Assembly (NCBI GenBank): GCA_003599025.1
Contig: QZIL01000002.1
Coordinates: 1,371-65,370, forward strand
Source of the DNA: Nitrospiraceae bacterium
GTDB lineage: Bacteria; Nitrospirota; Thermodesulfovibrionia; UBA6902
DNA length: 64,000 nucleotides
Direction: 5' to 3'
The notes under the pieces are model-generated. The model did not search any database. It was given only the letters and a program-made list of their open reading frames with translations, and was not told the DNA's origin. The translations under genes were made by a program, and so were the position numbers. How positions within the stretch are numbered: position 1 is the stretch's first letter; each line of letters opens with the position of its first letter. Positions 19,562-63,493 of this stretch are shown piece after piece.

Positions 19562-19589
19562 TTGACTTTTTTTCAAAACATGCTAATCT
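19562..19589 (+). promoter_or_regulatory. Candidate sigma-70 promoter for the cytochrome c gene
   Basis: TTGACT (19562-19567), a 16-nt spacer, TAATCT (19584-19589). It sits about 60 nt upstream of the SD AAAGGAGGTGA. Confidence 0.35.
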
Positions 19590-19649
19590 TCCATTTAAGA
19601 TTGAAGTCAGACTGATTGCAGAGCTCTGAGTGAAAGGAGGTGATATCTA

Positions 19650-43388: not shown

Positions 43389-44402
43389 TTACAGCTGTTT
43401 TGCAGTGCTGATTTCATCTTTCAGAAGTATCTCCACAGACGCCTTCCCGCGCAGGGACTTTGCGTAGAGATCAGCTTCCTGTTTTGCCTTTTCCTCAACG
43501 AGGGACTGACGTATCTGATCCTTGACGCTGTCATATGCCAGGATGGTTTCCGGCTTTCTTTCGCTGACCTTGAAAATATGAAACCCATATCCGGTCTCTA
43601 CAACATCGCTTGTTTCTCCAGGCTTCAGACTGAAGACAACGGCTTCGAGTTCCTTTTCAAGCTGCCCTGTCCTGACATAGCCTATATCGCCGCCGTCCGT
43701 CCTTGTAGGACCATCCGACTGCTCACGCGCAAGGGCCGCAAAATCCTGCCCGGCCTTCAGCTTCTTCATGATCTGGTCGGCCTTCTTCCTCGCCTCCTGT
43801 TTGCGGGAGTCCTCCAATTTAGGGTCAAGGTGAATGAGGATATGGCTTGCCCTGACCTGAAGCGGCTGCTTGAAGAGGTCCAGACGGCCCTCGTAATAGT
43901 TCATCATTTCGCTGTCAGTGACCGCAACCTTTGCGGCAAAGCGCCGTTCAATAAACTGCTGCACTGCGCTGTTTCTCTCCAGCCTGGCCCGCAATATATC
44001 CTCCGACATATTTTTCCTGCTTAACTGGTTTCTGAACTCCGTCACGCTCGGGAACTGCTGCATCAGCGCATTTATCCCCTTATTGACAGAGTTCTCATCC
44101 GGCTTGATGCCTGCCTTCCGGCTCTCCTGATTGAGGATTTCGAGCCGGACCAGGCTTTCAAGAACATCTACCTGGACGGCTTCGACCTGGCGCGTGGTAA
44201 GAGGCCTTCCAAACTCCAGAAGCGCCCTCTGTATTTTCAGGACCGCTTCATCAAATTCCACCTTTTCAATCGGCGCCCCGTTCACCATGGCCGCTTTATT
44301 GACCGGCTGGGGCTTCGCATCTTCCGCCCTGGCGGGAAAGGACATAACCATGAGACTGACAACCATTAACACGATATGATAAGTTAAGACTCTTCTCAGC
44401 AT
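43389..44402 (-). CDS. Periplasmic SurA/PpiD-like chaperone with parvulin (PpiC) PPIase domain
   Basis: It has a signal peptide and a SurA_N-like helical part, then RASHILIHL...DFAALAREQSDGPTRTDGGDIGYV...GYGFHIFKV, the parvulin rotamase core. Confidence 0.85.
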   Translation of the reverse strand: MLRRVLTYHIVLMVVSLMVMSFPARAEDAKPQPVNKAAMVNGAPIEKVEFDEAVLKIQRALLEFGRPLTTRQVEAVQVDVLESLVRLEILNQESRKAGIKPDENSVNKGINALMQQFPSVTEFRNQLSRKNMSEDILRARLERNSAVQQFIERRFAAKVAVTDSEMMNYYEGRLDLFKQPLQVRASHILIHLDPKLEDSRKQEARKKADQIMKKLKAGQDFAALAREQSDGPTRTDGGDIGYVRTGQLEKELEAVVFSLKPGETSDVVETGYGFHIFKVSERKPETILAYDSVKDQIRQSLVEEKAKQEADLYAKSLRGKASVEILLKDEISTAKQL

Positions 44403-44418
44403 TTTTCTTTACCTCACT

Positions 44419-45105
44419 TTATTTATTAATTTTCTTTTTTTCAATTTCCTCACGGTACTGCTGGAGGAGCTGCTCCAGCTCCACCTTCTTTACCTGTGTC
44501 AGGGGCTCCTTCTCCAGAAGGATTGTCCCCAGTCCCTTGTTCCTGTAATTCGTCACCAGCTCCTCCGCGATAATACCGAGGTCGGCATTATTCGCTTTGC
44601 AGCGGCCCAGGTCCTGCGCCGTCTTTTCCTGTTCAGCCTGAACAGTCTTTTTCTCAGCCGCTGACTTTTTTAACTCTGCCTGAAGCGCCTGCTTTTCTTC
44701 GGCCAGCTTTTTCAACTCACTGTCAAGGTCCTTGTTCTTCCGTCCCGTTTCCCGGGCCTCTTTATCGGCCCTGACAGCCGCCTCTTCCGATGTTTTGACC
44801 CTCAGCTCCAGCCCCTGCATCTGTCCGTTAAGTTTATTTAACTGCGCATCAAGTGTCTGCTTCTCGCTTCCGAGCCTGTCCAGTTCCGCCTGGGCCTGCT
44901 GTTCGGAAACAGACTCCTCATATTTCCCCTCCGCCATCTTTTTTTGCATGAAGGCGACTTTCTTTCCGGCCTCCTTGATCTTTTCATGCGCGGCCTCCCG
45001 CTCCTTATTGACTCTGCTGTTGCCAATGCTCAATCCGATGATCAGGCCGATAATGAGCGCTGCTACGGGGATTATGATTTTTAAAGGCCGGGACATACTG
45101 TTCAT
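44419..45105 (-). CDS. Membrane-anchored coiled-coil protein
   Basis: An N-terminal TM helix (IIIPVAALIIGLIIGLSIG) is followed by about 190 aa of heptad-rich Glu/Lys/Gln sequence. I recognise no family. Confidence 0.6.
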   Translation of the reverse strand: MNSMSRPLKIIIPVAALIIGLIIGLSIGNSRVNKEREAAHEKIKEAGKKVAFMQKKMAEGKYEESVSEQQAQAELDRLGSEKQTLDAQLNKLNGQMQGLELRVKTSEEAAVRADKEARETGRKNKDLDSELKKLAEEKQALQAELKKSAAEKKTVQAEQEKTAQDLGRCKANNADLGIIAEELVTNYRNKGLGTILLEKEPLTQVKKVELEQLLQQYREEIEKKKINK

Positions 45106-45120
45106 TTTTTACCTCCAGAC

Positions 45121-46977
45121 TTAAAATCTTGCATTTAAATCCACCTGCAGCACATCTATCGCCTGCTTAGGGCCGCTTATCTCATCCGCGGTCAGCCATC
45201 GAAGGGTAAGCCAGGCGTTCTTCATCAGGCCATATTCCGCTCCCAGTATCCAGCCCCTGGCATTTGTGCCTCCAAGGTGAAAGTCAGAATCCGTGAAGGC
45301 ATCCACAACTGCGTCGCCCCCCAGGTATTTATAATAGAGATACGCCTTCCAGGACGGGACCCAATCGTCGGGTGTCTCAATAGCGGGGGAATCAACGGAC
45401 ATCCCGAACTGATAGCCTGTAATATCTTTTTCAGGATCTGCTAGCCCGGTAAGATCAGAAACCTCGGATTTATCAAACCCGTAGTTCTTGACAAAATCGC
45501 CGAGGAAAACAACATGAACAGGGTCCCAGAACCCGATATCGAGGGTCCCGGTCAGGTTCATCTCCTTGAACTTTGATGCAAGCCCCACCTTGAAACTGTT
45601 GTTCGGATCAATATAGAACAAGGTGTTTCCCTTTTGCTGATACTGGGGGGCCGACCAGTCGGTGGGTCCGCTTTTATCCAGGGAATTATTGTTTCTCACG
45701 CCGGTGATGTTACTGAATAAATAGTAGGCCGCTCCGACTTTCGCGGATATCCCTTTCTTATGCTTCTTTTCCATCCCGATCTGTCCGCCCGTGAGCCACT
45801 TGGCCTTGGTGGAGAAGTCATCATACTGCAGGGGGAAAGCGCCTTCGGTAAGATAAAATGTCCATGAGTCTGTAATTGGCTTCCGCAAATTCAGGGCAAG
45901 CCCCTCGAAGTTTAAATCGCTGTCCCACACAAGGTCTGATGAAAACCAGGGATTGGGCATCCTTCCGCCATATGCAGTGAAAAGGGTCGGGAGGTAACCA
46001 GGTGACTTCTGATTAAACTTGAGATAGGCCTGCTCCAGGACTATGCCGTCTTTGTTCATATAATCGCCCAGGAGGGTATTGGTTGAAACTGGATTTGACG
46101 AATTCCCTGTAGCGAGACGTAAAGCGGCCTGCAGCTTTTGAGTTCCAAGCGGGTCTTCCGATATGTCCAGCTCAGTTCCGAAGCGGACCCGGTACTTGAA
46201 GCGATACTGGTTCGACCGTGTGTTAATAAGCTCCTGTGTATCAGCGCCCTGAGATATCCTGGTGAACTCATCAAAGTTGTTCTCGTCATACCGGTCATTC
46301 TCATACCGCAGCCGAACATCGCCGCTGAAACGCACGCGCTTGGTCCACTCAGGCGCGGCCGCGGCAAGTTCGGCGACCTTTCCGCCGTACAGCAGCTCCG
46401 CGATCTTCTGTTCAACGTATGACACTTTTTGATTGAGCTCCGCGATCTTTTCTTTCTCCTGTGCAGACGCCTCTTCAGCGGCAGGGACTGCATCTGCCGT
46501 CTTTATTTCCTTCGGCAGCGCCTCCTGCGCTTCGGTCTTCAACTGTTCAGGGATGCTTTTCCTGATCTCCTCGGTGACACTCGCAGTGATCTTCCCGATC
46601 TGTTCCTTCTCACGGTCCTGAAGCTCCCTGGACAACTCCTCCCTGACCTGGGCCATGATCTGTTCCTTGAGCTTTTGCATAAGTTCAGCGGTAACGGCTG
46701 CTGATATCCTGTCGATCATTTCCTGCTCGCTGAGCTGTGAAGCCGCAGGACCACCGTCTTTTTCTCCGGCCGGGGCAGATCCATCCTCCCGGCGCTGCTG
46801 ATCAGACCGGTCCGCTTCACTCCGGGGAGGTGTCTTCTCATGCCTGATCGTCAGCGGCACAGGGGCCGTGGCGCATCCGAAAATAATCGTCAGAAGCAAA
46901 ACCGCGATGCCTTTACTGATATGTCTTCTCAATTCCGTTGATGCTGTAAACACCGTAACTATGTCACTTCTTTTCAT
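45121..46977 (-). CDS. Outer-membrane protein: signal/possible lipobox, Glu-rich coiled-coil N-region, porin-like beta-barrel
   Basis: The N-terminus LLLTIIFGCATAP is a possible lipobox. Roughly residues 90-200 are charged coiled coil. The remainder shows alternating aromatic/Gly beta-strand patterning, and the C-terminal ...VLQVDLNARF is an OMP beta-signal with terminal Phe. Confidence 0.65.
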   Translation of the reverse strand: MKRSDIVTVFTASTELRRHISKGIAVLLLTIIFGCATAPVPLTIRHEKTPPRSEADRSDQQRREDGSAPAGEKDGGPAASQLSEQEMIDRISAAVTAELMQKLKEQIMAQVREELSRELQDREKEQIGKITASVTEEIRKSIPEQLKTEAQEALPKEIKTADAVPAAEEASAQEKEKIAELNQKVSYVEQKIAELLYGGKVAELAAAAPEWTKRVRFSGDVRLRYENDRYDENNFDEFTRISQGADTQELINTRSNQYRFKYRVRFGTELDISEDPLGTQKLQAALRLATGNSSNPVSTNTLLGDYMNKDGIVLEQAYLKFNQKSPGYLPTLFTAYGGRMPNPWFSSDLVWDSDLNFEGLALNLRKPITDSWTFYLTEGAFPLQYDDFSTKAKWLTGGQIGMEKKHKKGISAKVGAAYYLFSNITGVRNNNSLDKSGPTDWSAPQYQQKGNTLFYIDPNNSFKVGLASKFKEMNLTGTLDIGFWDPVHVVFLGDFVKNYGFDKSEVSDLTGLADPEKDITGYQFGMSVDSPAIETPDDWVPSWKAYLYYKYLGGDAVVDAFTDSDFHLGGTNARGWILGAEYGLMKNAWLTLRWLTADEISGPKQAIDVLQVDLNARF

Positions 46978-47083
46978 TATGTTCTCTCATGACCTCTCTT
47001 TCTGGGAAGTAAAACCAAACACTCATTAAGCAGTTTTTTTTAACTTCTGACTTCTCACTTCTTACTTTCCAACTTCTTTGTTG

Positions 47084-47797
47084 TTAGCTCTTAAAAGTCA
47101 TTTTGATCTTCATCGTACGAGGCATGCCGTCAGGCGGCGAATCGCTGAAACTGATATTGCCCAGGACCTGGTTTACCGTCTCATCCATTTTATGGTTCCC
47201 TGATGAGCCTATGATCCTGTGCTCAACGATATCGCCATCCGTGTCCACTTTCAATTTCACAACTACCTGAAGCGTTCCTCTTGGCAGCCCGCCTTCCATG
47301 TCCCAGAGCTTCATGATCCTTTTATGGATCTCACTTTCCACAAAGTGTGCATATCCGCCGTATTTAGACAGGAGAGACAGATTGCCGAGCCCGTTCCCTC
47401 CTTCTCCGGCAAGGAGGCTTCTCCCCCCTTTTTTCGCAACCAGCCCGAAGGCGTCGCTCCCCGCTGTGCCGTCCGAATCCACGCCGAGGCTGTCCCCCGC
47501 AGGCGCGTTGTCCGGCTCACCGGCAGGCCTGTCATTCGAGGCCGCCTCTTGCGGGACCTGAGCAATAACTTCCTCCTTCTGCTCCTGCCTGACCGGCTCA
47601 GGCTCCGGCGGTTTTTCCTTTATCTGCGGCGGGGGCGGCTTCAACAGGGTCACCATGGTAACGTTGTTTTTTTTCTGCGGACTATCGTCAGATATCACCA
47701 TTATTATGAAATAAACTGCAACAACGCACAGAGCGACCATCAGGGCAATGAACCCCCATGAGGCAGCGGACATTTTTTCAGTTTGTCTGTCGGACAT
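47084..47797 (-). CDS. tonB: TonB-family energy transducer
   Basis: It has an N-terminal TM anchor, a Pro-rich spacer (LKPPPPQIKEKPPEPEPV) and a C-terminal TonB_C-like domain (LQVVVKLKVDTDGDIVEHRIIGSSGNHKMDETV). Confidence 0.8.
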   Translation of the reverse strand: MSDRQTEKMSAASWGFIALMVALCVVAVYFIIMVISDDSPQKKNNVTMVTLLKPPPPQIKEKPPEPEPVRQEQKEEVIAQVPQEAASNDRPAGEPDNAPAGDSLGVDSDGTAGSDAFGLVAKKGGRSLLAGEGGNGLGNLSLLSKYGGYAHFVESEIHKRIMKLWDMEGGLPRGTLQVVVKLKVDTDGDIVEHRIIGSSGNHKMDETVNQVLGNISFSDSPPDGMPRTMKIKMTFKS

Positions 47798-47806
47798 ACG
47801 TTCCTC

Positions 47807-48217
47807 CTATTTGACGAGCTTTTGCGTCACGAGCGCAAGCTGGGTAATCTCCAGCCTCTGGAGCAAATCCAGCACCTCTATGACGCCTTTGTACGCTATT
47901 TTTTCATCTCCCCGGATCACCACGGGCAAATTAGGGTCCGCAGCTTTGTATTGGCGGAGCCTGTCTTCCAGTTCTCCCATAGTCACAGGGAAGCTGTCGA
48001 GATACATGGTCCCTTCCGAGGTGATGGTGATCGCCTTTGTCGTGGCCTTGACCTTGCCGGCAGCCGCGCTCGCCTTTGGAAGGTTGACGCTGATCCCCTG
48101 TACGGACGCCGTCACTACGATCATGAACACTAAAAGGAGGTTCCATGCAAGGTCCAGCATGGGAACGACGTTGATCTCATCGTATATCTCATGTTCTTCG
48201 TAGGGGTTATGCCTCAT
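47807..48217 (-). CDS. exbD: ExbD/TolR-family protein
   Basis: From ATG 48217 it reads MRHNPYEEHEIYDEINVVPMLDLAWNLLLVFMIV, the canonical ExbD TM with conserved Asp. This is followed by VNLPKA....ITITSEG..YLD and VVIRGDEKIAYKGVIEVLD. It overlaps the exbB-like gene by 11 nt. Confidence 0.85.
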   Translation of the reverse strand: MRHNPYEEHEIYDEINVVPMLDLAWNLLLVFMIVVTASVQGISVNLPKASAAAGKVKATTKAITITSEGTMYLDSFPVTMGELEDRLRQYKAADPNLPVVIRGDEKIAYKGVIEVLDLLQRLEITQLALVTQKLVK

Positions 48218-50063
48218 GACGCGGCCCTTTCTCCTCTTCCAGCTTAAGAATGAAGTCATCGATGAAGACATTGACGTCCGCATTCATGTTCTTGATATTG
48301 CCGGTAATATAGCTGCTTGCGAACAGGGCTGGAATTGCGATCAGGAGGCCTGCCATGGTACAGGCAAGCGCAGAGGCGACCCCGGGCGCAATGGCTGCGA
48401 GGTTCGCTTCGCCGCTCTCTGCAAGGCTTGCAAAGGTGTTCATGACCCCCCAGACCGTGCCGAGAAGACCCAAAAACGGCCCGCCCGCAACACTCATGTT
48501 CATGATAACCATGCCAGCCGCCAGTTTTCTGCTTTCATACATGGCCTGCTTTTCCACCGCTGCTTTAAACCCGTTCATGGCCCTTTCCGACAACCCGCTC
48601 CCGTGTTTTGATGTTTCCCCTTTTTTCTCCATCAAACGCCTCAGCTCAACACAGCCTGCGCGATACACCCGGTAGAGCGTCGAATGCTGAAAGTCCTGTT
48701 CCTTGTCAAAGAGGGACATCGGATTATCCATCCCTCTGAAATTCTCCGAGAAGGTTTCGTTCCCTTTTCCGGCAAGACGGAATATTGTTATCTTCTGCTG
48801 AAAGATGTACACGGACGCGAATCCCATGAGGATCAGAAATCCGATAATAAGCCAGCCGTCAAGGGTGATGGTCCTGATAATGACCTTCATGAGATGGACT
48901 GTCAGCGATTCTCCGCTGCCTCCGCCTTCCTCCGGCTCCATGTAAGACATCAGCATGCCGTCCGGTCCCTGGCCCTGGAAGGCGGCCCTTATCCATCCGG
49001 CAGATCTGGCTGTGCCGGACAATTGCATCTCGTCCACATCTCCGGTAAAGACATTGCTCCCTTTCACCGATGCGCCGATGATGATGTCGGCAGCCGGCGC
49101 AGGGACCATTCCCTTGAGTTTGATATACGCGGCCTGTCTGCCGTCGAGATACAGTGTGATCTGGTTGTCAGGGTCTGCTGTCACGGCCAGATGGTGCCAG
49201 CCCTTCGGGGTCAGTACCGCTGTTTTCGGCGTCACCGTCGCCTGCCCCTTGCCGGTACTGAGACTACAGTAGACCTTCGATTCTTCCACTCCAACAGTGA
49301 ACGACTGCTTCCCGTCGTCCCAGGATAAAAAATGCGTATTGCCTTCAGACTGGTTGACGCGGACCCACGTGGAGAAGGTAAACCCCTTGGTAAAATTAAG
49401 CGACGACGCCCTGGTAATAGTCATCAACTCTCCGGCCCCGCTGAACTGGGCGCCGTTTCCCACAACTGAAGGGACACCGAGCTTCCCTGAAAACGAGGCC
49501 GCGTGATTGCTGTAGGCCGTTGCGTCACGCGGATTGCCATCCTCATCGCCCAGGTGATAGACAGCCACCTGGTTCACATCGTACGTGCCGCCCGCGTCCT
49601 GGCCGTCAGGTGCAGAATCATTCCCATAATACATCCATATGGAATCCTGACTGCCGCCCCCGGATATCCTGGGGACCTTGACCCATATGAGGGCGATCTC
49701 TTCTATAGGATCAAACTTCTCTATGTGATATTTCAGGGGAGACTTATCGTCAAGGCTTACAAACCTGAGGTCCGAACCATCCTCTTTTGCGCTTGGAAAA
49801 CTGAAGTTGCCTGTATGCAGGCGGACCAGCAGCGGGACATCAGCGACATTCTCATCGATTCCGGCCCCGTTTGAAGAAGTATCAAATTGAATCTTCATCC
49901 TCTGCTGCCACTTCCCGTCCCACCATGCATTAGCATCAGGGACCATAAACAGTCCGATAGTAATCATCAGCAACACAATCAGCGCTGAGATTTTATTCAG
50001 CCTCAGTTCCGATAAAAAGGCCCCCGGAACACCTCTTTCAACTTTGTCTTTCTTTCTGTCCAC
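48207..50063 (-). CDS. Fusion protein: DUF2341 + LamG/concanavalin-like lectin domain + MotA/TolQ/ExbB proton channel
   Basis: A signal-anchor is followed by WWDGKWQQRMKIQFDTS...VPLLVRLH...GSDLRFV (DUF2341). Next comes FTFSTWVR...GWHHLAVTAD...ITLYLDG..VDEMQLS (LamG-like). It ends with three TM helices containing GGPFLGLLGTVWGVMNTF...IAPGVASALACTMAGLLIAIPA (ExbB core). Confidence 0.8.
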   Translation of the reverse strand: MDRKKDKVERGVPGAFLSELRLNKISALIVLLMITIGLFMVPDANAWWDGKWQQRMKIQFDTSSNGAGIDENVADVPLLVRLHTGNFSFPSAKEDGSDLRFVSLDDKSPLKYHIEKFDPIEEIALIWVKVPRISGGGSQDSIWMYYGNDSAPDGQDAGGTYDVNQVAVYHLGDEDGNPRDATAYSNHAASFSGKLGVPSVVGNGAQFSGAGELMTITRASSLNFTKGFTFSTWVRVNQSEGNTHFLSWDDGKQSFTVGVEESKVYCSLSTGKGQATVTPKTAVLTPKGWHHLAVTADPDNQITLYLDGRQAAYIKLKGMVPAPAADIIIGASVKGSNVFTGDVDEMQLSGTARSAGWIRAAFQGQGPDGMLMSYMEPEEGGGSGESLTVHLMKVIIRTITLDGWLIIGFLILMGFASVYIFQQKITIFRLAGKGNETFSENFRGMDNPMSLFDKEQDFQHSTLYRVYRAGCVELRRLMEKKGETSKHGSGLSERAMNGFKAAVEKQAMYESRKLAAGMVIMNMSVAGGPFLGLLGTVWGVMNTFASLAESGEANLAAIAPGVASALACTMAGLLIAIPALFASSYITGNIKNMNADVNVFIDDFILKLEEEKGPRHEA

Positions 50064-50066
50064 CTC

Positions 50067-53000
50067 TTACTCCTCCTCTTCCTCTTGAACTAAATCTATG
50101 ACTTTCACGTCCAGCCACTTCATTAAGATGTCATCTATCATCTGGGCCGCCTGGGCAGTCCTTTCCGCAGCTATGCCGGGGGTCGCATCACCAGCCATCT
50201 GGCCGGGCTGCGCAACGGAGCCGGCGCCGCCTGTGAGACCTCCAAGGGCCGCGCCGCTTGTAGACGCCTGAGGCACGCCGACAGACCCTGCCGAGAAACT
50301 GATATTGGCCGAATTCTTGACTTCCAGCGCCGCAAGGATGATCTTTCCTCCTGTGATCCCTGCCTCGCCTGCATCGATCACGCCGCTTGGGGCGGTGAGA
50401 TGTATATCTCCAGGCTCCGGCATCGCCAGAGGTCCCGACCCGTCAGGATCAAAGGTCACGGCGCGGATGCCGCTGCCAAGGACTGGGGGGCTGAACACTT
50501 TTCTGTAAATGCCTGAGCCGGCGGGATATTCCTCCATCCTGGCAGGCGAAGCGCTGACAGCCGTTCTCGATCCCCGTCCGGCATTTATGTTTCCCTCGTC
50601 GCTCCAGATAGTGATATCACCGCCATAAAAGGTCATGATCCGTGATTCGTTTACGTTCACGTCATACCCGGTAAAGATGTTGATTGCGCCGCCTCCCCCC
50701 GTCCATACGCCGGTAAAGTCATCACTTTTCTGACCGGCAATGGGCAAGGCTGTCTTGCCGAGGTTCATGCTACCAGCGGCGATAACAAAGATATCGGACT
50801 GCCCGATCGACGTTCCTATCTGAGAGGCGATCATGTTTATGTTGCCTTCGCCTGAGGGTGTTCCAAGCAGCGGTTTGATTGTCGCGTCCCTTGTTGTCTC
50901 CCGAAGCTCGGCAGCCTCCGCTGATTTGCCTTCAGAAAGCAATTCCGCATACTGATCGCCTGCATCGCGAATATCGTCAAAGAAGGTCCTGATCATGTCG
51001 GCAGGCAGGTTCTGATCATACCCCGACAAGACGACGAGTGTGCTCTTTTCAGTGCCTAACAGGACATTGTTGCCGTTTCCGATCGCCTGGAGACCGCCAT
51101 ATATCAATTTCTGATCTACCACGGCGTTGTTTGAAGTTCCCAGGTCGATCGAGTTGCCTGCCTGGACCAGGAAAACGCCCGGGCCGCCCTGGATCAGGCC
51201 TCCTGTTTTGCTCTTTTTTTCATACTGCATCCGGATATCGCGCCCTGCCTTGATCATGGTGACATCCCCCGTACTAATGTTCTGTCCCTCATAGGTCATA
51301 TCGAGGATGTCCCGTCCTGCCCGTATCTCGGTCTTTTTCGCCGCGTAAAGTCCGAGGTTTCTGATGTCCCTGCCCGCGCTGATCCCGATTTCCCGGGTGT
51401 CGCCGGAGTGCAGCGGCGAGGCAAGTGCCTGGAGTACGGCATCTTCAGGCTTAAAGTAGCCATGATGGTTATAAAGAGTCCTTTCCGTATTCCAGGTCAG
51501 ACCGCCGTTACTTACTAAATCTTTGTAAACCCGGAAGAGGCCATACCAGTACTTTGGAGCGATATCGGACATCGTGATACCCGCCGCCTTGCCGGAATAA
51601 CTGGATGCCGTGCGTACTGCCTGTACAATATCCACCCCGGCATCAAGCCGAAGCCTGCCATCCGGAGAAGATGTCAGGGTAAGGTCATCACTGAGCAGTA
51701 GGATGTTCCCCCCGGCTTTAATTTCTACATTGGCCGGTAAGATTTTCGCGAACTTCGATATATCATGTCCAGTAGGTGTATATAGCGGAGATACACCGGC
51801 AAAGGTCAGATCTTCCCCTGCCTTCAGGCTGATACCGGTATATTGCGTGTAAGTGCAGTTTATCCAGTAGTATTGATTTAATTGATCGCTTGCAAGTGAG
51901 GGGTTCAACACCGAGCCGATCTTCATCGCTCCCTCAGCGGCCACGGACATCCGGCTGTCAAAGAGCTCGATCTGCTGGGACTTATCAGCGCTGCCGAAAT
52001 TCCCCATGGCGTGAATCTCTCCTTGCCCCATCCTGTTCAGTAACCGGCCATCGACGTTGCCGCCGGCATAGATGGCGAGGTCACCTTCGCCAAAGGCGCC
52101 TGCCTGGGTCAGGAAATCCGAACCAGTGCGGATGTAAAGATCGCCCCCCCCCATGGCGGCAAGACCGGACGTCGTATCAAACTGTTTCTTTTCTTTGGGT
52201 GATGATAAGGTATAAACAGACTGCCGCGCATAACTTGCCGAGAACCAGCCGTATTTTTCCAAAACGGTGTTATTCCGCGTGCTCCCCCCGGGCTTCAAGA
52301 TGGGCGTGAAATAATCCCAGGCATTCGTAGCAGGAGGCATGGCGCTGGTCCATTCTCCATTTGAAATCGTCCCCACATGCCGGCCCACATCCAGAGTGAT
52401 GTTCCCGCCATCGGCATATCTCCAGTAATATGTGAGGGTGTTGGAATTAGGGGTGTTAAAGTAATTGTCTTTATCAGCCAGCATGGGTTTAGGCTTACTT
52501 GACGGGTCATCATAAGGCGGGTCTACATCTGTCGTATCATCTGTTCGAAGCATACCAGTCGTGCGAATAGCGCCCAGGGTGCTCAGACCGGATACTATTG
52601 CCGTATTGAGCTGGAGGTCCCGGCCGATATCTATAGCGATATCCCCGGTGGCGGTCTGTATGGCGCCGCCGTTGATTATAAGGTCCCGTCCGATGTCCCC
52701 TTGTATGTCCCCGTAAGGAGAGGCAAGGTTATATCGCATGGTCGGATCAATCATAAAGCCTAACGGAGTGTCCTGCCCCCTGCCGACAAGCGTGTCTCGC
52801 CCCGAGGCGAATCTGACAGGCGCGTGTTCGGTGTAAACAACTTTCTGGTCCGCGATTTTCAGGTCCCCTTTGCCATGGACAACTGCAAGGGGGGCTGCGC
52901 CAACAGTGTACGAACCCGCGACGAGGTTGAATGCCCAGGAATCCCTGCCCGCGCTGCCCGGCAGGTTTGCCAGGGACGTAGGATGGTCGACAAGGTTGTT

Positions 53001-56000: not shown

Positions 56001-59000
56001 GGTGACCCAGATGTTGTTGGAGTTGATCGCATCGTACAGTACCTCCGTATCTCCGGCGGTTGTCAAAACACTGCCCCCGGCCAGATAGATGCGGCTGCCG
56101 GCAGCGGTGGTAAGCGGGTTGTCATCATGATAAGGGTCCTCGTCGATGACAGCAGTTGTGAGTGTGATAGTCCCCAGGGGAGCTGCTAATGTGCCCCTGT
56201 GTTCGATCCCTGTGCCTGCCTCAACCGTAAGGTTTCCGCCTGCCGAGTAGATTGGACCGCCCGTACGTGTATCCGAGGGGAGAATGGTAATCTTGCCGTC
56301 GGCATGCAGGGTGTAATCAGAGTATATATTGGGATAGATTGTGCCGAGTGTATCCTGATACGTGTAAAAATTCCCCGGATAGATGCGGTCTGCTTTAAAA
56401 ATCATATCGCCTGCTGTGACAAGCTTGCCGGGTTTTACAAGCGCCTCTCCGGCTTTGCCTGAGAGCTTGTATGACGCCTGGCTCAGGCGAATGTCCCGCC
56501 TCGCTTCAATATGGACGTCCTTAAACCCGGTAAACTGCACGGTCCCGATCACATCGACCCATGTGCCTTTCAGGTTAATGAGAGCGTCTCCTGTCACGCC
56601 GCTTACCCCTGGTGTTTGTGTAACGGGGTAGTAACTGTTTGCCAGAACGATCCACGGCGCTTCAAGAGTCACCCCGTTCGACCCGGGACCCTCGATTTCC
56701 GGGGCATCGAGGGTCAACTTTCTGTTGAGTGCGACATTCATGGGCCCGCTGAACCGGAGAGATTTCCAGCTCCTCAGGGTCAGGTCATCGAAACCCAGGT
56801 CCTTATAACGGACAATGTCTTCGGCCCTGACAACCAGTGGATTGTTTTCATTTTGCCGGCTGATGGCCAGGGCGGCCCTCTTTATCCCTGCCATGTTCAC
56901 CCCGGTCTTCACATCGCCCATCCAGTCCATAGCATTTATGTAATTCAGAGTAAGGCTCCCGGGGTCTCCGGCCTCCTGGAAAGTGATAATGCTTCCATCC
57001 GCGGCCCTTATCCTGTTCTCGATTCTTTCAGACCCGGAGATGTCAATAATGGAACCTTCCTCCAGGGTCACATTGTACCCCGTAAGGGTAACGCTCCCTG
57101 CCTTGACCGGCTGATAATTCACCTCAAAGCCCTTTGGCGTTGTTGAAGGATCAGGCCGGTTGTAGCCTCCGGCCAATATTCTCGCGGTCGATTTGATTAT
57201 CATATCCGCGCTATTGCCTTCACCTTTAAGATTGATCGCACCCCCGCGAGCTTCGAGTGTCCCTGCTATCGTAACAGAGGTTTTCGCCTTACCCGAACCT
57301 GAAAAAGTGATTTCCCCCCCGGGCGCCGTCCGGACCGAGGCCCTTTCGGAAACAGTAATTCCAGCCTGATCGACATCAATGTCGTGCTGTCTTAAATTTC
57401 CCTGGTTATATCCCGTGGCCCCGGTAAAGTCACTGCCGGCAGTCCCTTTGAAGGAAGATGTCCCGGCCATGTATGCCGTGGACTCACTGAGCCTGAGGAG
57501 ATCGGGCCGGACGGGGACCTCAGCGCCCGCGACATTTGCCGCCTGCAGGGCAGACACAGGGGCGTTCAGCCGTACCAGAGACGTGGAGATGGCAATGTCG
57601 GGATCTATAACAATGTCTCCATAACTTTTAAGCGTGATGTTCGTAAAGCCTGTATCGTCGAAGCGATCGCCGGCCAGCAGGAGCGTCCCGCTGTTCAGAT
57701 CATCTTTGTACAGACCGCCAGATGCCGCATTAAAACCCGACCAGTCATTCCCTTCGGACCCCACACGGATCTCCGTGGATGTCAAGGTGATGGAGCCTCC
57801 TGATATCTTCCCGCTCCCATCAGCCAGTGCATATCCCCGGAGATCTCCATCAAGCATGATATTCGATCCCTGGATGGTCAATGCGCCTGCATTCGCGCCC
57901 TTGACTTTGCCCCCGGGGTCAATAGAATAACCGCCGCTTACATCCGCAATGGCCCCGGCCTGTATGAAGACACCATCTCCCAAATCCGTTTCATCAAGAA
58001 TTTCAATAACGCCGCCCCCGGTCAGGCCGTATCTGAAATCGGTATTGCCTGCTTTTCCCGCATGAGTATTGTCGATCCTCTCCCCTGAAACATCCAGCAT
58101 GCTTCCTTGTCCGAGGACAATCCTCTCCTGCAGCGGAACAAAGCTGCCTTCCTCTTTAAGGTTCCCGTTATAATCCGTGGGACTTGTAAGGTTCTCCCTG
58201 ATTAACATCCTGATCGTACCGGCAGGCGCCTTAATCTTCCCTCTGTGCTCAATCCTGCGCGTATCAATTTCAAAAGCGCCTCCCGGCTGCAAAGTAATAC
58301 CGGCCCCCTGCGCCGTCTGGACAGTCTCCAGCGCCGCTAACTGTATGGTATCCAGTTTCGCGTCATTCAGGGTCTTCGCTGAAAGGACAGTAGGCTGTTT
58401 CTCCGGCAAGCTGGAATCAGGGGTGATACCGGAATGGGGTGATGTTTCGGAAAGGATTAATATAGAAGACGGCTGGCTGCTCAACGCTTCATTATATGTA
58501 TCAATATCGCCTAAGATAAACGTGCCTGCCTTCGGAGCTTCAAGGCCGCGCGCCGCAGAAATGGCATACTCCTCTGATCCCCTGTCTGTAGTTACAAGAT
58601 TCTGGTGAATTCCACGCATCACACTCCCGTCGAGCCGACCGTCCAGGTAGACCGTAGCCGCTTTCAACCTGAGTGTACCTGCATCGCCGCCCTTTAACTG
58701 GCTGGGGACATGCGTCTGCAGCGGAGATGCGCCGCCGTAATAAAGGCCGTAATATGAGTCCTTAGTGCCGAACCGTTCAAATACCTTCTCATACTGCCCG
58801 ATAGTCTTGTCATACCTGATATTCAAGGGGGCACTGCTGATATCATATATCTTCTTGCCTGACACTAATTTTGTTGAATTTATAAAACCCTCGGCATAGC
58901 GGGCCGCGCCGCCGGAAAAATCAAGCAGCGCCCCCTCTTTGATAATTATGTCGCCCGCATTGACTGTTATGTCTATCATCCCGGTCTGGGACTTCCACTT

Positions 59001-60473
59001 CCACGTTCCGGTTTTGTCGTCTTTTTCTTTTCTAAGGGCGCCCCCGATGCTGCGCTCCAGGGCCGTCCTTTCCCCGCTCAGGTACACCTGTGAAAGATCG
59101 CCGATGGCAGTGCCTGAAGTGACAGGGGTTGTGATCTTCATTCCCGGTACGAGACCGCTCTTCTGTCCATAGGCATCGCGGAGCTCGACACTGGTCAGTT
59201 TGAAGTCAGAGAGGATTGATGGAGGAAGATATGCCTCAACGCCGCTTACATCGATACGGCTGCCTGCTTCGAGATATACCCTCTGTCCGGCTTTCAGCAC
59301 GACATTTCCTGCAGGCGCAGTAACGGCCCCCCTCAGCTCGATCGAGCCTGCTGACGTCTCTGAAATACTGCCTTCAGGATCCAGAATATCCAGGCCCTTG
59401 ATGGTCACCTCAGGCTGGATAATAAATGTATCACTGACCGTTTCTGTTGTTGACGGGTTGACCGGAAGGGAGATTTCACTGTTCTTCCCTGTTGTTACTT
59501 TGCCTGCGGCCCTGAGCTCTACCTCTCCTTTGTTGTTCTTGAAGGCGGTCATGGACCGAATCGTCCCCATCTGATCAACAGCTCCTCCGTACATGCCTGC
59601 CAGTCCCCCATCGGCATACAGCCGTCCCCCTTCCTGGTTCACGGAATAGCCGGACCCGGCTTGTTTTACGATGACATAATAAGCCACTCTATTATTGTTA
59701 TGTACCAGATCTGCATCAGTACCCGCAATCAGGCCTATCTGCCCTGCCGGGGTGTTAATCACTCCGGCATTTTCTGTAAAAGGCCCGAGGAGAAAGACCT
59801 GCCCTCCGTCTTTGGCGTTTATCTCTCCATGGTTCGAGACGAAGGCGTTAGGATCAAGCGTTGCCGTGTCGTCAATCTCTTTGCGGTAATTCTCATGTTT
59901 GAATTTGAGGACGTTGCCGATAAAATCCTCATCCTTGATGTTCAAAGCCGAGGCCGCGAGGCTGCCGACGTTGATCCTGGAGCCAGGGCCGAAGAGGATG
60001 CCGTTCTGGTTTATGAGATATATCTTTCCGTCTGCTGTAAGTTTTCCTAAAATGTAGGAAGGGTCCTTGTCCCATATCCGGTTGAGGGCGGCCCAGTCTG
60101 CATTTCCCTTCTGGTCGAAACGGACCTCTGAATCAGCTCCGATATCAAAGGTCTTCCAGTTTATTATGGCCTTTTCTTCGGTCTGGTTAATTGTCATTTT
60201 ATTGCCCTGAATACCCGGCGTTTCCGCGCCCCTCTCAATGTTGTTTAACTCTGGAAGAGCATGCGCCGATGGTCCATTGAACGTCCTCATCCCCCCGGAA
60301 AAGCCGGGGATAGTGACCCCGGGACCTGTTTTATTGGGTAAATTTATATTAGGAGCCGCGGACTTTCCGCTGTATACGCCGGGTTGGGCGGCCAGTACGA
60401 AATCAGGAAGCAGCACAAGGAGGCACAAAATCACCCGGAGCATCTTGTCTATAAAGCCCTTTAACATATTCAT
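50067..60473 (-). CDS. Giant two-partner-secretion exoprotein (TpsA; filamentous haemagglutinin family), 3468 aa
   Basis: After the signal peptide, the N-terminal TPS domain reads NQTEEKAIINWKTFDIGADSEVRFDQ...ALNRI...SYILGKLTADGKIYLINQNGILFGPGSRINVGSLAASAL. About 3000 aa of Gly/Asp/Thr/Ala-rich beta-helix-type sequence follow. The conserved C-terminal region GDITIWSDEGNINAGRGS... is like the C-terminal domain of FHA-family proteins, and the acidic tail is QEEEEE. Confidence 0.9.
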   Translation of the reverse strand: MNMLKGFIDKMLRVILCLLVLLPDFVLAAQPGVYSGKSAAPNINLPNKTGPGVTIPGFSGGMRTFNGPSAHALPELNNIERGAETPGIQGNKMTINQTEEKAIINWKTFDIGADSEVRFDQKGNADWAALNRIWDKDPSYILGKLTADGKIYLINQNGILFGPGSRINVGSLAASALNIKDEDFIGNVLKFKHENYRKEIDDTATLDPNAFVSNHGEINAKDGGQVFLLGPFTENAGVINTPAGQIGLIAGTDADLVHNNNRVAYYVIVKQAGSGYSVNQEGGRLYADGGLAGMYGGAVDQMGTIRSMTAFKNNKGEVELRAAGKVTTGKNSEISLPVNPSTTETVSDTFIIQPEVTIKGLDILDPEGSISETSAGSIELRGAVTAPAGNVVLKAGQRVYLEAGSRIDVSGVEAYLPPSILSDFKLTSVELRDAYGQKSGLVPGMKITTPVTSGTAIGDLSQVYLSGERTALERSIGGALRKEKDDKTGTWKWKSQTGMIDITVNAGDIIIKEGALLDFSGGAARYAEGFINSTKLVSGKKIYDISSAPLNIRYDKTIGQYEKVFERFGTKDSYYGLYYGGASPLQTHVPSQLKGGDAGTLRLKAATVYLDGRLDGSVMRGIHQNLVTTDRGSEEYAISAARGLEAPKAGTFILGDIDTYNEALSSQPSSILILSETSPHSGITPDSSLPEKQPTVLSAKTLNDAKLDTIQLAALETVQTAQGAGITLQPGGAFEIDTRRIEHRGKIKAPAGTIRMLIRENLTSPTDYNGNLKEEGSFVPLQERIVLGQGSMLDVSGERIDNTHAGKAGNTDFRYGLTGGGVIEILDETDLGDGVFIQAGAIADVSGGYSIDPGGKVKGANAGALTIQGSNIMLDGDLRGYALADGSGKISGGSITLTSTEIRVGSEGNDWSGFNAASGGLYKDDLNSGTLLLAGDRFDDTGFTNITLKSYGDIVIDPDIAISTSLVRLNAPVSALQAANVAGAEVPVRPDLLRLSESTAYMAGTSSFKGTAGSDFTGATGYNQGNLRQHDIDVDQAGITVSERASVRTAPGGEITFSGSGKAKTSVTIAGTLEARGGAINLKGEGNSADMIIKSTARILAGGYNRPDPSTTPKGFEVNYQPVKAGSVTLTGYNVTLEEGSIIDISGSERIENRIRAADGSIITFQEAGDPGSLTLNYINAMDWMGDVKTGVNMAGIKRAALAISRQNENNPLVVRAEDIVRYKDLGFDDLTLRSWKSLRFSGPMNVALNRKLTLDAPEIEGPGSNGVTLEAPWIVLANSYYPVTQTPGVSGVTGDALINLKGTWVDVIGTVQFTGFKDVHIEARRDIRLSQASYKLSGKAGEALVKPGKLVTAGDMIFKADRIYPGNFYTYQDTLGTIYPNIYSDYTLHADGKITILPSDTRTGGPIYSAGGNLTVEAGTGIEHRGTLAAPLGTITLTTAVIDEDPYHDDNPLTTAAGSRIYLAGGSVLTTAGDTEVLYDAINSNNIWVTEDKKKPGQFDAADDTNIVTLPFGQETLPQKGIELEADETIVREGAKIDASGGGSFFAYRFLPGIEGTGNPLEKSGRYIVFKDNGFQMPGTSVYLKGGGGLSEGMYTMVPLGPGNAQNARYAFMPGAYILELQAGPSIPGPWLVSKYGYPLVVGYAGVADTTILGTRPQVYSVRSASDVMTEGHFDKQGMIAGNAGDLTVKGNTTIIDGDLNAGPLASIYRGGKISLSGKNISVEQMTGSLLPGGFGYETSFDSTAYLMDLKDKLTIDARGLSNREFREVELGYLNPDTPQDKLNTESIIFESGTYLEAAGISVSARDNITIMEGTSERPTTLYARTEKDKDSGEGVLTLNTPGSLSAGPDSLLHAAHNIIFEVNKVDEIQGALQVDNSAITLKSRAITFTEARKTSNDAGLFLNKKLLQAFSQFEDMTFIAGYSDVATEIRFMDAYDLIAAESITMDAARIIGDNGPGVTLAAPAVTLTNSGDRTDASSTAGHDTEAGIFAVNASEQVTVGSGDILLGGFRTIALNSAGDVVFKGKGSLATGNADLEITAARVTTGAAHEAGGTYQPPDFRVIAGAGKNDLNPANLIRMMRPDNGQAATTGVPGGTLEFAARKIELGTVLQVDGGDIKLTTAGAKGEDGKFLAPSDEDGIILKDGGSIIARGTDDAPGGRVVLATNFIDETGQEQSGKIELQNGSLIDVSAGAQGDAGIITLSAPVGGVMIYGDVKGAAGKKKDKSIGRGGSLVVDTNKFAKEIIEFSTLISKVEEGGFTASLDLRARSGDIDIDNGEMLKAHKIKLTADGGAINVDGIIDASAYEGSYYPDGGTVELYAQDDLNLDGSILAGGINGGEGGYVQLSSSEGDVIVNAEEINVSGSEGGIVYLRARRNDSEGFRDVAISLNHSVTGASALYVEAVRRYGYDGFNFTSALDDAHAHYANAPVERLSNKVDADTTSFHYLPGIEVVSIGDINWNTQWDVSGVRFGGEQEPGVLTLRAGGNLYINNNLVDHPTSLANLPGSAGRDSWAFNLVAGSYTVGAAPLAVVHGKGDLKIADQKVVYTEHAPVRFASGRDTLVGRGQDTPLGFMIDPTMRYNLASPYGDIQGDIGRDLIINGGAIQTATGDIAIDIGRDLQLNTAIVSGLSTLGAIRTTGMLRTDDTTDVDPPYDDPSSKPKPMLADKDNYFNTPNSNTLTYYWRYADGGNITLDVGRHVGTISNGEWTSAMPPATNAWDYFTPILKPGGSTRNNTVLEKYGWFSASYARQSVYTLSSPKEKKQFDTTSGLAAMGGGDLYIRTGSDFLTQAGAFGEGDLAIYAGGNVDGRLLNRMGQGEIHAMGNFGSADKSQQIELFDSRMSVAAEGAMKIGSVLNPSLASDQLNQYYWINCTYTQYTGISLKAGEDLTFAGVSPLYTPTGHDISKFAKILPANVEIKAGGNILLLSDDLTLTSSPDGRLRLDAGVDIVQAVRTASSYSGKAAGITMSDIAPKYWYGLFRVYKDLVSNGGLTWNTERTLYNHHGYFKPEDAVLQALASPLHSGDTREIGISAGRDIRNLGLYAAKKTEIRAGRDILDMTYEGQNISTGDVTMIKAGRDIRMQYEKKSKTGGLIQGGPGVFLVQAGNSIDLGTSNNAVVDQKLIYGGLQAIGNGNNVLLGTEKSTLVVLSGYDQNLPADMIRTFFDDIRDAGDQYAELLSEGKSAEAAELRETTRDATIKPLLGTPSGEGNINMIASQIGTSIGQSDIFVIAAGSMNLGKTALPIAGQKSDDFTGVWTGGGGAINIFTGYDVNVNESRIMTFYGGDITIWSDEGNINAGRGSRTAVSASPARMEEYPAGSGIYRKVFSPPVLGSGIRAVTFDPDGSGPLAMPEPGDIHLTAPSGVIDAGEAGITGGKIILAALEVKNSANISFSAGSVGVPQASTSGAALGGLTGGAGSVAQPGQMAGDATPGIAAERTAQAAQMIDDILMKWLDVKVIDLVQEEEEE

Positions 60474-60490
60474 TGGTCCCTCCAGGCCGA

Positions 60491-62092
60491 TTAAAAAATT
60501 GCCTTTACCAGAAAATGGACTCTCTGGTCGCCGCTCTTTATCCTGTCCGTCGACCTGAGGGCCACTGCCCAGTCCAGTTCGTATTCAATATTCTTTGTTA
60601 TCGAGCCCCGCACTCCTGCCCCCGCCCCCTCTATTTTTGTGCTCTTGTCCTGTCCGGGAAGCGGTGATTTGATGGACATTGCCGCCACGTCATAGAAGAT
60701 ATAGGGGCCCGTCCGGAGCCACTTTCCAATTCCGGTCGTTTCAACAGGGTCAGGGAAAGAGACCTCCAACGTACAATGCACACCGTTGTCTCCTGAGGCT
60801 TCGCTTTCTTTATATCCCCTCACGGTGTCCATGCCGCCTGCCGTATATTGCTCATTGTCGATAAGCGGCTGATCAGACACCTGTCCGTCCACTTTAGCGA
60901 AAAGGACCATTCCGAGCGGCAGCTTCTGTGTCCGCTGGATGCCCAGATTGGCATAGAGGTAATTTGCCCTTGCCTTGAAGCGCTTGTCCTCAAACTCCGT
61001 TTCCCTGGAGCCTAATCCGCGCAGGGACAGGTTAAGTCCCCCGCTGAACTGGGTCGTCCCGCCCAACTCATCAGGCAGTGAAGCGCTGTACGAAAGTGAG
61101 AGCGGCAGATACGAAACGGGGGTCTCCGTTGTCTCTCCGCTTTCTGTTGTGAAACCGACGGCCTGATCGAAATGCTTGTAATCTATGCCGAGTGTCATGT
61201 TATGGTCGTAGAGCTTATATGACGGCAGGGGCATCACATAGCGCGCCCCGAATATCTCCCCCTTGCCTGTCACCTTGAACCCCTCGCCGAACGCGGTGTC
61301 ACTGTCAGACCAGATGCCGTAAAACGCAAGCTGGCGGTCTTTGTCCCATGGCGACGGAAGTACATATGAAGCGCCCAGCACCTGCGCCTCCTTTATCTTC
61401 TGCGGCGATGCCTGGTACTGAAAGGACAGGCTGTGTTCCTTTTGCCAGAGATTGTCATAGCGGACCATGGCGTTCAGCCGCAGTTCAGACGTGTCATGAC
61501 TGGCCCTGTTGTTGAGCTCAAGGGAGCCGTGCAAAGGCAGACGGTCCTCAACTTTCAGCTCTATATCGATGGTCCCCGGTTTCTTTCCGGGGGACATACT
61601 CGGGGTGACCTTGAAATCAGGATTTCTGTTCAGGAAGGCGATATCACTCTGCACGTCCGGCAGATAGATTATCCTTCCCGGCCAGAGGGACTTCAGGTCC
61701 CTCATGACCTTCCCCGATGTAAAATACCGGTTTCCGGTGACCTTCACTTGCCCTATCCGTCCCTCTATTACCTCAAGCTTTACGATGTTGTCCTGCAATG
61801 TCTGTTCCGGGATATTCACGATCACCGAAGGATACCCTGCATTGTGATAGAGCCTCTCAAGGGCGTCCCGCGCCTTTTCTACGTCAGCAACTGTCTTTCC
61901 GGTGCCGGTGAAGGGCATAACGGCGGCCCTCAGCTCAAGCGGGGACAAAAGGCTGTTCCCTGTTATTTCAAAATCCCTGATCATAAATCCTATGTCCTCG
62001 TTGTCCGCAGCCGGGCATTCTTCATGCGCCAGCGCATTGATCACAAAAATAGCAGCCATAAGATAGAAGATGAACGGAGTAATCCTCTTCAT
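60491..62092 (-). CDS. TpsB transporter (ShlB/FhaC/HecB family; POTRA domains plus Omp85-type barrel)
   Basis: POTRA reads IRDFEITGNSLLSPLELRAAVMPFTGTGKTVADVEKARDALERLYHNAGY. A second POTRA follows, then a barrel containing the TAGGMDTVRGY (VRGY/F L6 loop) motif and a terminal Phe (LVKAIF). Confidence 0.9.
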   Translation of the reverse strand: MKRITPFIFYLMAAIFVINALAHEECPAADNEDIGFMIRDFEITGNSLLSPLELRAAVMPFTGTGKTVADVEKARDALERLYHNAGYPSVIVNIPEQTLQDNIVKLEVIEGRIGQVKVTGNRYFTSGKVMRDLKSLWPGRIIYLPDVQSDIAFLNRNPDFKVTPSMSPGKKPGTIDIELKVEDRLPLHGSLELNNRASHDTSELRLNAMVRYDNLWQKEHSLSFQYQASPQKIKEAQVLGASYVLPSPWDKDRQLAFYGIWSDSDTAFGEGFKVTGKGEIFGARYVMPLPSYKLYDHNMTLGIDYKHFDQAVGFTTESGETTETPVSYLPLSLSYSASLPDELGGTTQFSGGLNLSLRGLGSRETEFEDKRFKARANYLYANLGIQRTQKLPLGMVLFAKVDGQVSDQPLIDNEQYTAGGMDTVRGYKESEASGDNGVHCTLEVSFPDPVETTGIGKWLRTGPYIFYDVAAMSIKSPLPGQDKSTKIEGAGAGVRGSITKNIEYELDWAVALRSTDRIKSGDQRVHFLVKAIF

Positions 62093-62098
62093 CTTTCG

Positions 62099-62989
62099 CT
62101 ATTTCCCCATGCCGCTTGCGGCCAGCTTTGCGTGCTCAGCCTTGTCGACCGTCACGTCACAGAACAGTTTTTCCCCTCCGAATGGATGCCTGTAGTTAAT
62201 GGTAATAATTTCGTCAGTTACGTCGGTAATACGGCCTACAAGGGGACCGCTGCGGACCAGGCTGCCTTTGCGGGCTTTGATATCGAGTTTATAATTCTTT
62301 TCATCATGATAAATACGTCCCAGTCCAAAAGGTGTCTGTATCACATCTCCGGGAGTAGCGTTAAAACGGACCGTTACCTTCCCCCCGGTGACAGCGGTAA
62401 CTCTCCCCGGGAATGACGGGTCGATGCTAAATGATTGCCCTACTTCCGGTGACTTGCCGGTCCGGTCCGCGTATTCGTCCACCGGCATTGTCATTACCTT
62501 CGGCCGCGTGCGAACACGCGCCATTCGCAGTATGTAATACTCTTCGTCTTTCGCCGATGACTCCAGGGCAGTGATCTCCAGTTGACGCCGCTCTCCCTCT
62601 TGCATGCCGGCCACCGCTCTGGCAAGCCGTTCCAGGACCGCTTCATCAAAGGGCTCTTCAGGCCTTAATGGGAACGGCTCATCAGGGCGGACCGCTACAA
62701 CCGAGAGGGGGCCGGTCTCTTTTCTCGTGACAAAAATACCGGACTTCGACTGTTCATCGGGGACGCTGCCGGAGGCCGCGACCACTTCTCCGCTTTTCAA
62801 ACGGCATAAATAACTGATTTCAGCCCTGTCCCCGGTCTCAACAATCCCGGCCTTTGCAGTGTCTGAGACATCACCTTGAACATCCTTAGCAGTGTCTGCT
62901 GCCCAACTAAACACGGATTGCGTCAGCAGCAAAGCCGCCGTCAAACTGATCATAGTCCCGCGGGAAAATATCCGGGGATTACCCCTCAT
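62099..62989 (-). CDS. Secreted FKBP-type PPIase, SlyD-like with insert-in-flap domain
   Basis: Start taken at ATG 62989 (GGGGGAGAca-ATG), giving MRGNPRIFSRGTMISLTAALLLTQSVFSWA; the track ORF extends to 63079. GDRAEISYLCRLKSGEVV, VAGMQEGERRQLEI, and INYRHPFGGEKLFCDVTV match FKBP/SlyD (DFNHPLAGKxLxFxV). Confidence 0.7.
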   Translation of the reverse strand: MRGNPRIFSRGTMISLTAALLLTQSVFSWAADTAKDVQGDVSDTAKAGIVETGDRAEISYLCRLKSGEVVAASGSVPDEQSKSGIFVTRKETGPLSVVAVRPDEPFPLRPEEPFDEAVLERLARAVAGMQEGERRQLEITALESSAKDEEYYILRMARVRTRPKVMTMPVDEYADRTGKSPEVGQSFSIDPSFPGRVTAVTGGKVTVRFNATPGDVIQTPFGLGRIYHDEKNYKLDIKARKGSLVRSGPLVGRITDVTDEIITINYRHPFGGEKLFCDVTVDKAEHAKLAASGMGK

Positions 62990-63044
62990 TGTCTCCCCCA
63001 GCGATTGTGTCCGCGCAAAAACCTGTTTTTGATATGCCGATTTT

Positions 63045-63251
63045 TTATAAAGCTCCATGATGCACACCATTCCCTCCATTTTTCTTTATCCCGTTCCCTC
63101 CATGCATGAGCGCCGTCTGTGCGACTTCGACCTCCTCGGATTTTTCTACCCGCCCGAGGCTGCCCTGGGTGAAGTTGATTTTTAGGTACCCGCTGAATTC
63201 CTCATCGGAAAGACTCTTGATTGCATCGGCAAGTCTTTTCATTCTGTCCAT
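63045..63251 (-). CDS. Small protein, YezD/DUF2292-like; first gene of the TPS operon
   Basis: Start at ATG 63251 (ACAGGAGGTttatca-ATG). FSGYLKINFTQGSLGRVEKSEEVEV resembles the DUF2292 pattern (GSVTIxxxxGRVVQIEKTEK). Confidence 0.4.
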   Translation of the reverse strand: MDRMKRLADAIKSLSDEEFSGYLKINFTQGSLGRVEKSEEVEVAQTALMHGGNGIKKNGGNGVHHGAL

Positions 63252-63493
63252 TGATAAACCTCCTGTCATAAGTCAAACCTCGTGATATGAACTTATTGAA
63301 TTACACTTCAATGCCACACATTGGAAAGTAAATGCAACAGAGAATTACAAGTTGATGACTGGTATCGTACCACCCGCTTTGTTAATACATCATTACATGG
63401 TTGTTAAACTTTTATTAAAAGAAAGTAAGGGCGTCGGAGTAAAGATTTTTTCCATTCAGCCGATAATGAATGCCAGGATATGCAACACTATTA

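Follow-up and report, generated by a model that had tools for sequence, protein, structure and literature searches.

Gene content of the locus

The stretch of DNA analysed here (the window; 64,000 nt, contig C2:1371-65370) comes from a 3.13-Mb Nitrospirota metagenome-assembled genome (120 contigs; 70% complete) and contains a locus in which a two-partner secretion (TPS) pair, the exoprotein TpsA and its translocator TpsB, is encoded together with a motor of the ExbB-ExbD-TonB type and several envelope proteins, a combination that is inherited as a unit in several phyla. The locus consists of ten tightly spaced contiguous genes at 43389-63269, all on the minus strand, transcribed in the order small open reading frame (ORF), weakly FKBP-like protein, TpsB, TpsA, fused ExbB/TolQ, ExbD/TolR, TonB, Porin_5, coiled-coil protein, and SurA/PpiC. 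Their features, with those of TpsA, are as follows:

63045-63269 (alternative end 63251), minus: small ORF, 68-74 aa; no Pfam or NCBIfam match; homologs in the related loci L020 and L063
62099-62989 (longest ORF to 63079), minus: secreted protein with a signal peptide and weak, sub-threshold FKBP-like signals (FKBP_C, FKBP26_IF)
60491-62092, minus: TpsB, Omp85-family outer-membrane translocator with POTRA domains (ShlB, POTRA_2, Omp85; BamA-like in NCBIfam)
50067-60473, minus: TpsA, 3468-aa TPS exoprotein (TPS domain, NPxG region, DUF3739)
59559-60209, minus: TPS secretion domain of TpsA, residues 89-305 (PF05860)
50271-50624, minus: DUF3739 domain of TpsA, residues 3284-3401 (PF12545)
50070-50126, minus: C-terminal hydrophobic motif of TpsA, MKWLDVKVIDLVQEEEEE, a candidate TonB-box-like strand (alignment of 19 TpsA C-termini)
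48207-50063, minus: fused ExbB/TolQ-type subunit with DUF2341 and LamG (DUF2341, Laminin_G_3, MotA_ExbB; TolQ the best NCBIfam model)
47807-48217 (ORF to 48283; probable start at 48217), minus: ExbD/TolR-type subunit (PF02472; NCBIfam TolR and ExbD models)
47084-47797, minus: TonB, with N-terminal transmembrane segment, Pro-rich linker and TonB_2/TonB_C (TonB_Cterm model above cutoff)
45121-46977, minus: Porin_5 outer-membrane lipoprotein, 618 aa (Porin_5; lipobox Cys35; AlphaFold2 model and Foldseek OmpM1-like)
44419-45105, minus: inner-membrane-anchored coiled-coil protein, 228 aa (no family at threshold; weak coiled-coil-type matches)
43389-44402, minus: SurA/PpiC-type periplasmic peptidyl-prolyl isomerase chaperone (Rotamase and SurA_N; PpiC/SurA in NCBIfam)

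ORF calls and domain searches confirm the ten minus-strand genes, with the coordinates and order that an initial annotation of the window had given them, and the junction spacings agree as well, including the gap between the TonB and Porin_5 genes (46978-47083), which is 106 nt where the annotation had 107. Pfam and NCBIfam likewise return its identities for TpsB, the 3468-aa TpsA, the DUF2341-LamG-ExbB fusion, ExbD, TonB, and SurA; the protein it had described as a coiled coil with an outer-membrane beta-barrel is a Porin_5, to which we add a lipobox cysteine and a modeled 16-strand fold. Two assignments did not survive: the first ORF, taken for YezD-like, matches no family, and the supposed SlyD/FKBP isomerase (326 aa as the longest ORF, with a probable start at an internal Met that gives 62099-62989) reaches only E = 0.0056 for FKBP_C and E = 0.0015 for FKBP26_IF. 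Because these signals lie below threshold and the protein is absent from most relatives, a weak homolog being found only in L063, we rejected it as a confirmed FKBP. Of the two isomerases that the annotation had cast as dedicated chaperones, the SurA-type protein is thus a conserved member of the gene set, whereas the FKBP-like one is weak and mostly missing elsewhere.

The stop codon of tpsA and the GTG start codon of the fusion are 3 nt apart. Scanning the minus strand revealed no terminator-like site separating tpsA from the motor genes, in a scan whose total site count is that expected by chance; promoter and terminator counts over the locus are also at chance level.

Distribution of the module

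Conservation was followed through the gene neighborhoods of relatives of the fused subunit (individual loci carry L numbers) and through a scan of GTDB genomes. About 900 proteins are related to the fused subunit, mainly in Nitrospirota and Desulfobacterota, and an ordered set of TpsA (with or without TpsB), fusion, ExbD, TonB, Porin_5, coiled-coil protein, and SurA is shared by many lineages: Nitrospirota, Smithella and other Desulfobacterota, Desulfobacterales, NC10, Thiotrichaceae, Burkholderiales, Oleiphilus, Lysobacterales, Alcanivorax, and Stenotrophomonas (three genomes, with the identity of TonB confirmed by Pfam in L037). A co-occurrence survey of the kind the initial annotation had proposed covered a sample of 301 Nitrospirota genomes: full-length fusions and strong DUF3739-TpsA matches fell in the identical 9, and the remaining 292 had neither. 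The nine are kin and not independent, but they represent at least three families, and the linkage recurs in several phyla. In all eight of these genomes other than the window's, tpsA is followed directly by the motor module.

The order of the genes is less constant than their company. TpsB is encoded upstream of TpsA in the window, while TpsA precedes TpsB, with both before the motor, in L020, L027, L034-L039, and L063; in some relatives tpsA and tpsB are separated by small ORFs that have homology to the first two genes of the locus (P0002/P0001; small ORF/FKBP-like). We therefore set aside the 3-nt tpsA-exbB junction as key evidence, since it is specific to the window genome and the order around tpsB varies. 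The initial annotation had argued from this junction that the adjacency was no accident; that conclusion stands, on the strength of a module co-inherited across phyla, although the junction itself is not conserved. It is at the level of the module that TPS and motor genes are coupled, and their co-inheritance is decisively beyond chance.

One could nevertheless suppose that the motor genes, together with those for Porin_5, the coiled-coil protein and SurA, form an envelope system of their own that was horizontally co-transferred beside TPS genes and has no functional link to them. The variable order around TpsB (L020, L027, L063, and the gammaproteobacterial loci) would suit such hitchhiking, as would an NC10 locus in which the motor module has no adjacent TpsA; on the other hand, the co-occurrence of the fusion with DUF3739-TpsA among the sampled Nitrospirota is perfect, and the two are retained jointly across at least four phyla, a span over which hitchhiking seldom lasts. 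We regard it as very improbable. Co-inheritance across several phyla suggests that energy is used at some step by which TpsA is made, held or released, and we favor the reading, with a probability of roughly 0.45, that the locus is a "TPS-Ton" module in which a dedicated proton-motive-force motor serves a TPS exoprotein at the cell envelope.

Several loci show further peculiarities. In L017, L028, and L007 (Nitrospiraceae/Thermodesulfovibrionia), tpsA is broken up by frameshifts or stops into several ORFs, as are other genes of the module, through pseudogenization or assembly errors. In Stenotrophomonas forensis (L037, ~17303-19952), the region a few kilobases downstream of the module encodes a regulator of the LysR type and an anti-sigma protein that is FecR-like, and a sigma70 gene of the extracytoplasmic function (ECF) type lies upstream of it in L007 (1-450); these neighbors hint at regulation of the cell-surface-signaling type. 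Elsewhere in the window, 24764-25972 (minus strand) encodes an AAA_14 and DUF4143 ATPase, of a family common in mobile and defense contexts. About 8 kb past the operon, outside the window, is a group II intron reverse transcriptase/maturase ORF (~C2:70990-72240), near which two subtilases, a tetratricopeptide repeat protein, and a Wzz/GNVR chain-length-determinant protein are encoded.

The motor and its possible partners

TpsA has the N-terminal architecture of a type Vb exoprotein, a TPS domain (PF05860, residues 89-305) with an NPxG region (TIGR01901), and its gene lies beside that of TpsB (ShlB, POTRA_2, Omp85). DUF3739 is kept near the C-terminus of every module TpsA, and the region formed by this domain and the tail is conserved across phyla and non-polymorphic in an alignment of 19 C-termini. 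The protein closes with a hydrophobic, strand-like motif, MKWLDVKVIDLVQEEEEE in the window genome and PSVISVQILGFG in Stenotrophomonas, which is retained in all lineages aligned and, judged from its sequence, could be a TonB-box-like strand. Toxin delivery of the contact-dependent inhibition type (CdiA/CdiB) was considered and rejected, because the TpsA C-terminus is conserved and not polymorphic.

The fused subunit was modeled with AlphaFold2 from a 26-sequence alignment, at a mean pLDDT (the model's own per-residue confidence score) of 82. In the model, a helix at residues 15-39, which is a transmembrane segment or signal anchor, is followed by a pair of beta-sandwich domains (54-349) and then by an ExbB helical bundle (355-610); given the topology of ExbB, the model places the lectin-like DUF2341-LamG extension in the periplasm. 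In Foldseek comparisons, the motor part resembles TolQRA and TonB-ExbBD structures, and the extension resembles concanavalin A-like lectin folds. The only mention of DUF2341 in the literature searched has it appended to the N-terminus of MotA homologs termed "generic ion transporter" (PMC12505986). By NCBIfam the two motor subunits score best as TolQ and TolR, while the transducer is of the TonB type, the TolA model falling below its cutoff. ExbB, ExbD and a TonB with its C-terminal domain, the components of a TonB-ExbB-ExbD system, are all present, and Pfam and NCBIfam detect neither Pal nor TolB in the module, which sets it apart from Tol-Pal. The linker of TonB (around residues 100-140) carries a motif, DLGVDAEGxAGxDxFGLVGKKGGRS, that is kept from Nitrospirota to Gammaproteobacteria (alignment A1). 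This motif is atypical for TonB and may be a binding site, with the lectin domain of the ExbB fusion as one conceivable partner.

The window genome has a separate TonB/ExbB near its four TonB-dependent receptors (TBDRs), the TonB of those receptors being on contig C16, and encodes no TPS exoprotein other than the module's TpsA. Because the genome keeps this second TonB/ExbB by its receptors and has a single TPS exoprotein, the motor of the locus is a paralog dedicated to the module.

No lineage that keeps the motor has lost Porin_5. Its lipobox cysteine (Cys35) is conserved in the Nitrospirota and Desulfobacterota sequences (alignment A3), and is followed there (residues 35-50) by a conserved PxPVTIKHExTP motif that is absent from gammaproteobacterial Porin_5; this motif could mark the start of a lipid-anchored stalk or be a TonB-box candidate. 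A low-confidence AlphaFold2 model (pLDDT 55) has an N-terminal coiled-coil stalk and a 16-strand barrel with no plug, and the top Foldseek match is the Veillonella "attachment porin" OmpM1 (8byt). The presence of such a barrel wherever the motor is kept allows a reading in which TpsA, as a surface receptor or scavenger, captures a substrate, TonB-ExbBD drives its uptake through Porin_5, and the lectin domain receives the cargo, the fate of TpsA itself not being energized. A TPS system working with a TonB-dependent receptor has a precedent in HxuC/HxuB/HxuA of Haemophilus, and it is conceivable that TonB energizes barrels other than TBDRs. However, Porin_5 is modeled as an open porin like OmpM1 or OmpF and not as a gated transporter, the module has no inner-membrane transporter or periplasmic binding protein, and the motif next to the lipobox is missing from the gammaproteobacterial porins, whereas the C-terminal motif of TpsA is kept in all lineages. 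We consider HxuCBA-like scavenging unlikely.

The SurA-type chaperone and the 228-aa coiled-coil protein (of no named family, and placed in an unnamed cluster in the Atlas) are two other conserved members of the module. The initial annotation had imagined an envelope-spanning scaffold made of the lectin domain and the coiled-coil proteins. The periplasmic position of the lectin domain in the model and the conservation of the coiled-coil proteins fit this idea; that they assemble into a scaffold is a further, conjectural step. A 3468-aa exoprotein, a proton-motive-force motor with a periplasmic extension, and coiled-coil proteins that would span the periplasm also recall machines in which a motor moves, tensions or retracts a surface adhesin by way of a scaffold across the envelope, as in GldLM-SprB of gliding Bacteroidetes or AglRQS-Glt of Myxococcus. 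Yet TpsA is exported by TpsB and not by a type IX secretion system, general Pfam and NCBIfam scans of the module gave no Gld or Glt homologs (no search aimed at Gld was made), and none of the host lineages (Nitrospirota, Smithella, Stenotrophomonas, Alcanivorax) is known to glide. An adhesin-pulling role for the motor is, in our judgment, rather improbable.

The genes, their domains and topologies, and their obligate co-inheritance are observed; under the TPS-Ton reading, the partner of TonB and the step that it energizes are what we infer, in the following manner. Since the TPS pair is canonical, TpsA would be threaded N-terminus-first through TpsB. In FhaB, a C-terminal region remains periplasmic, and the C-terminus of TpsA may similarly be held in the periplasm, as the FhaB prodomain is, during or after translocation through TpsB. 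TonB would then take hold of a target in the periplasm, for which the conserved motif at the end of TpsA is the most plausible candidate and the stalked porin the alternative, while the ExbB subunit would project its lectin-like domain into the periplasm from the inner membrane. The periplasm would be spanned by the inner-membrane-anchored 228-aa protein and the Porin_5 stalk, and SurA may fold the porin, keep TpsA unfolded, or both. The motor would in this way power a step of TpsA: the completion or control of surface display, retention on the cell, or release. The narrower proposal that TonB directly energizes TpsB-mediated translocation, or the surface retention or release of TpsA, by way of the conserved periplasmic C-terminal strand is tentative and, on balance, somewhat doubtful. 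When the TonB C-terminal domain was modeled in complex with the C-terminus of TpsA and the N-terminus of Porin_5, the score was 0.24 against a mark of 0.32 in a run without controls, a value that weighs neither for nor against binding.

Some observations weigh against a motor dedicated to TpsA. As the initial annotation had recognized, Pfam and NCBIfam searches find no plug-containing TonB-dependent receptor in the module, and the one modeled barrel with a stalk, Porin_5, is itself plugless. In the NC10 locus L025 (CAVQPC010000053.1), the genes from fusion to SurA are not beside a TpsA, having the carbamoyl-phosphate synthase small chain upstream; the motor may therefore act without TPS. The L025 fusion lacks its N-terminal ~90 residues. 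In a search of RNA sequencing runs for the tpsA-exbB junction, no run was listed with it.

TPS and autotransporter export is usually ascribed to folding at the surface alone, and an energy source at the outer membrane is a long-standing question. If the motor energizes a TPS step, it would no longer be tenable that type Vb export proceeds without energy at the outer membrane, and the role of TonB would widen from import through plugged receptors to secretion or display with a non-TBDR partner. Under the narrower proposal of direct action through the C-terminal strand, the system would be the first energized type V secretion, TonB would have its first partner other than a TBDR-type barrel, and the ExbB with its lectin domain would represent a new kind of motor subunit, tuned to TpsA. 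The hosts range from environmental anaerobes (Nitrospirota, Smithella) to the opportunistic, cultivable Stenotrophomonas, which makes the module tractable to genetics.

Relation to known systems

In its secretion genes the module resembles FhaB/FhaC of Bordetella, ShlA/ShlB of Serratia, and HxuA/HxuB of Haemophilus, with which it shares a TPS domain, an NPxG region, and an adjacent Omp85/POTRA-type TpsB. Canonical TPS systems encode no energy source; the module, unlike them, adds genes for ExbB, ExbD, TonB, a porin, a coiled-coil protein, and a chaperone, and its TpsA ends in a short DUF3739 and a hydrophobic motif in place of the ~1,000-aa prodomain of FhaB. Its membership of type Vb stands; it is a variant in that a dedicated, obligately co-inherited motor departs from the rule that such systems encode no energy coupling.

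The motor is likewise recognizable as a relative of TonB-ExbB-ExbD and TolQ-TolR-TolA, with an ExbB/TolQ-like subunit that fits the cryo-EM structures, an ExbD/TolR, and a TonB with a Pro-rich linker. It differs from these motors in its additional DUF2341-LamG domain, in the pairing of TolQR-like subunits with a TonB-type transducer, and in having no plugged TBDR as a partner. Use of a TonB/ExbBD system in protein export is known from Oar-PopC of Myxococcus xanthus (PMC6434023; reviewed in PMC11658791). Oar is a plug-containing TBDR, whereas the module has an Omp85-family TpsB and a plugless porin, and no Oar homolog or other TBDR was found in it with Pfam or NCBIfam; it is thus not of the Oar type.

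As modeled, Porin_5 shares with Veillonella OmpM1 a 16-strand porin and an N-terminal periplasmic coiled-coil stalk but lacks the SLH peptidoglycan-binding domain, has a lipobox, and is encoded in a secretion and motor module. The gliding machineries GldLM-SprB and AglRQS-Glt combine MotA/ExbB-type proton-motive-force motors that have periplasmic extensions with large surface adhesins; the adhesin of the module differs in being secreted by TPS instead of type IX secretion, and its hosts are not known gliders. The literature that we searched on DUF2341, DUF3739, Porin_5/PF16930, TonB-dependent secretion, and TPS with TonB/ExbB yielded no description of the module. Known parts are combined here in a new way, with a dedicated motor of the Ton/Tol type and a putative envelope scaffold built into a TPS system.

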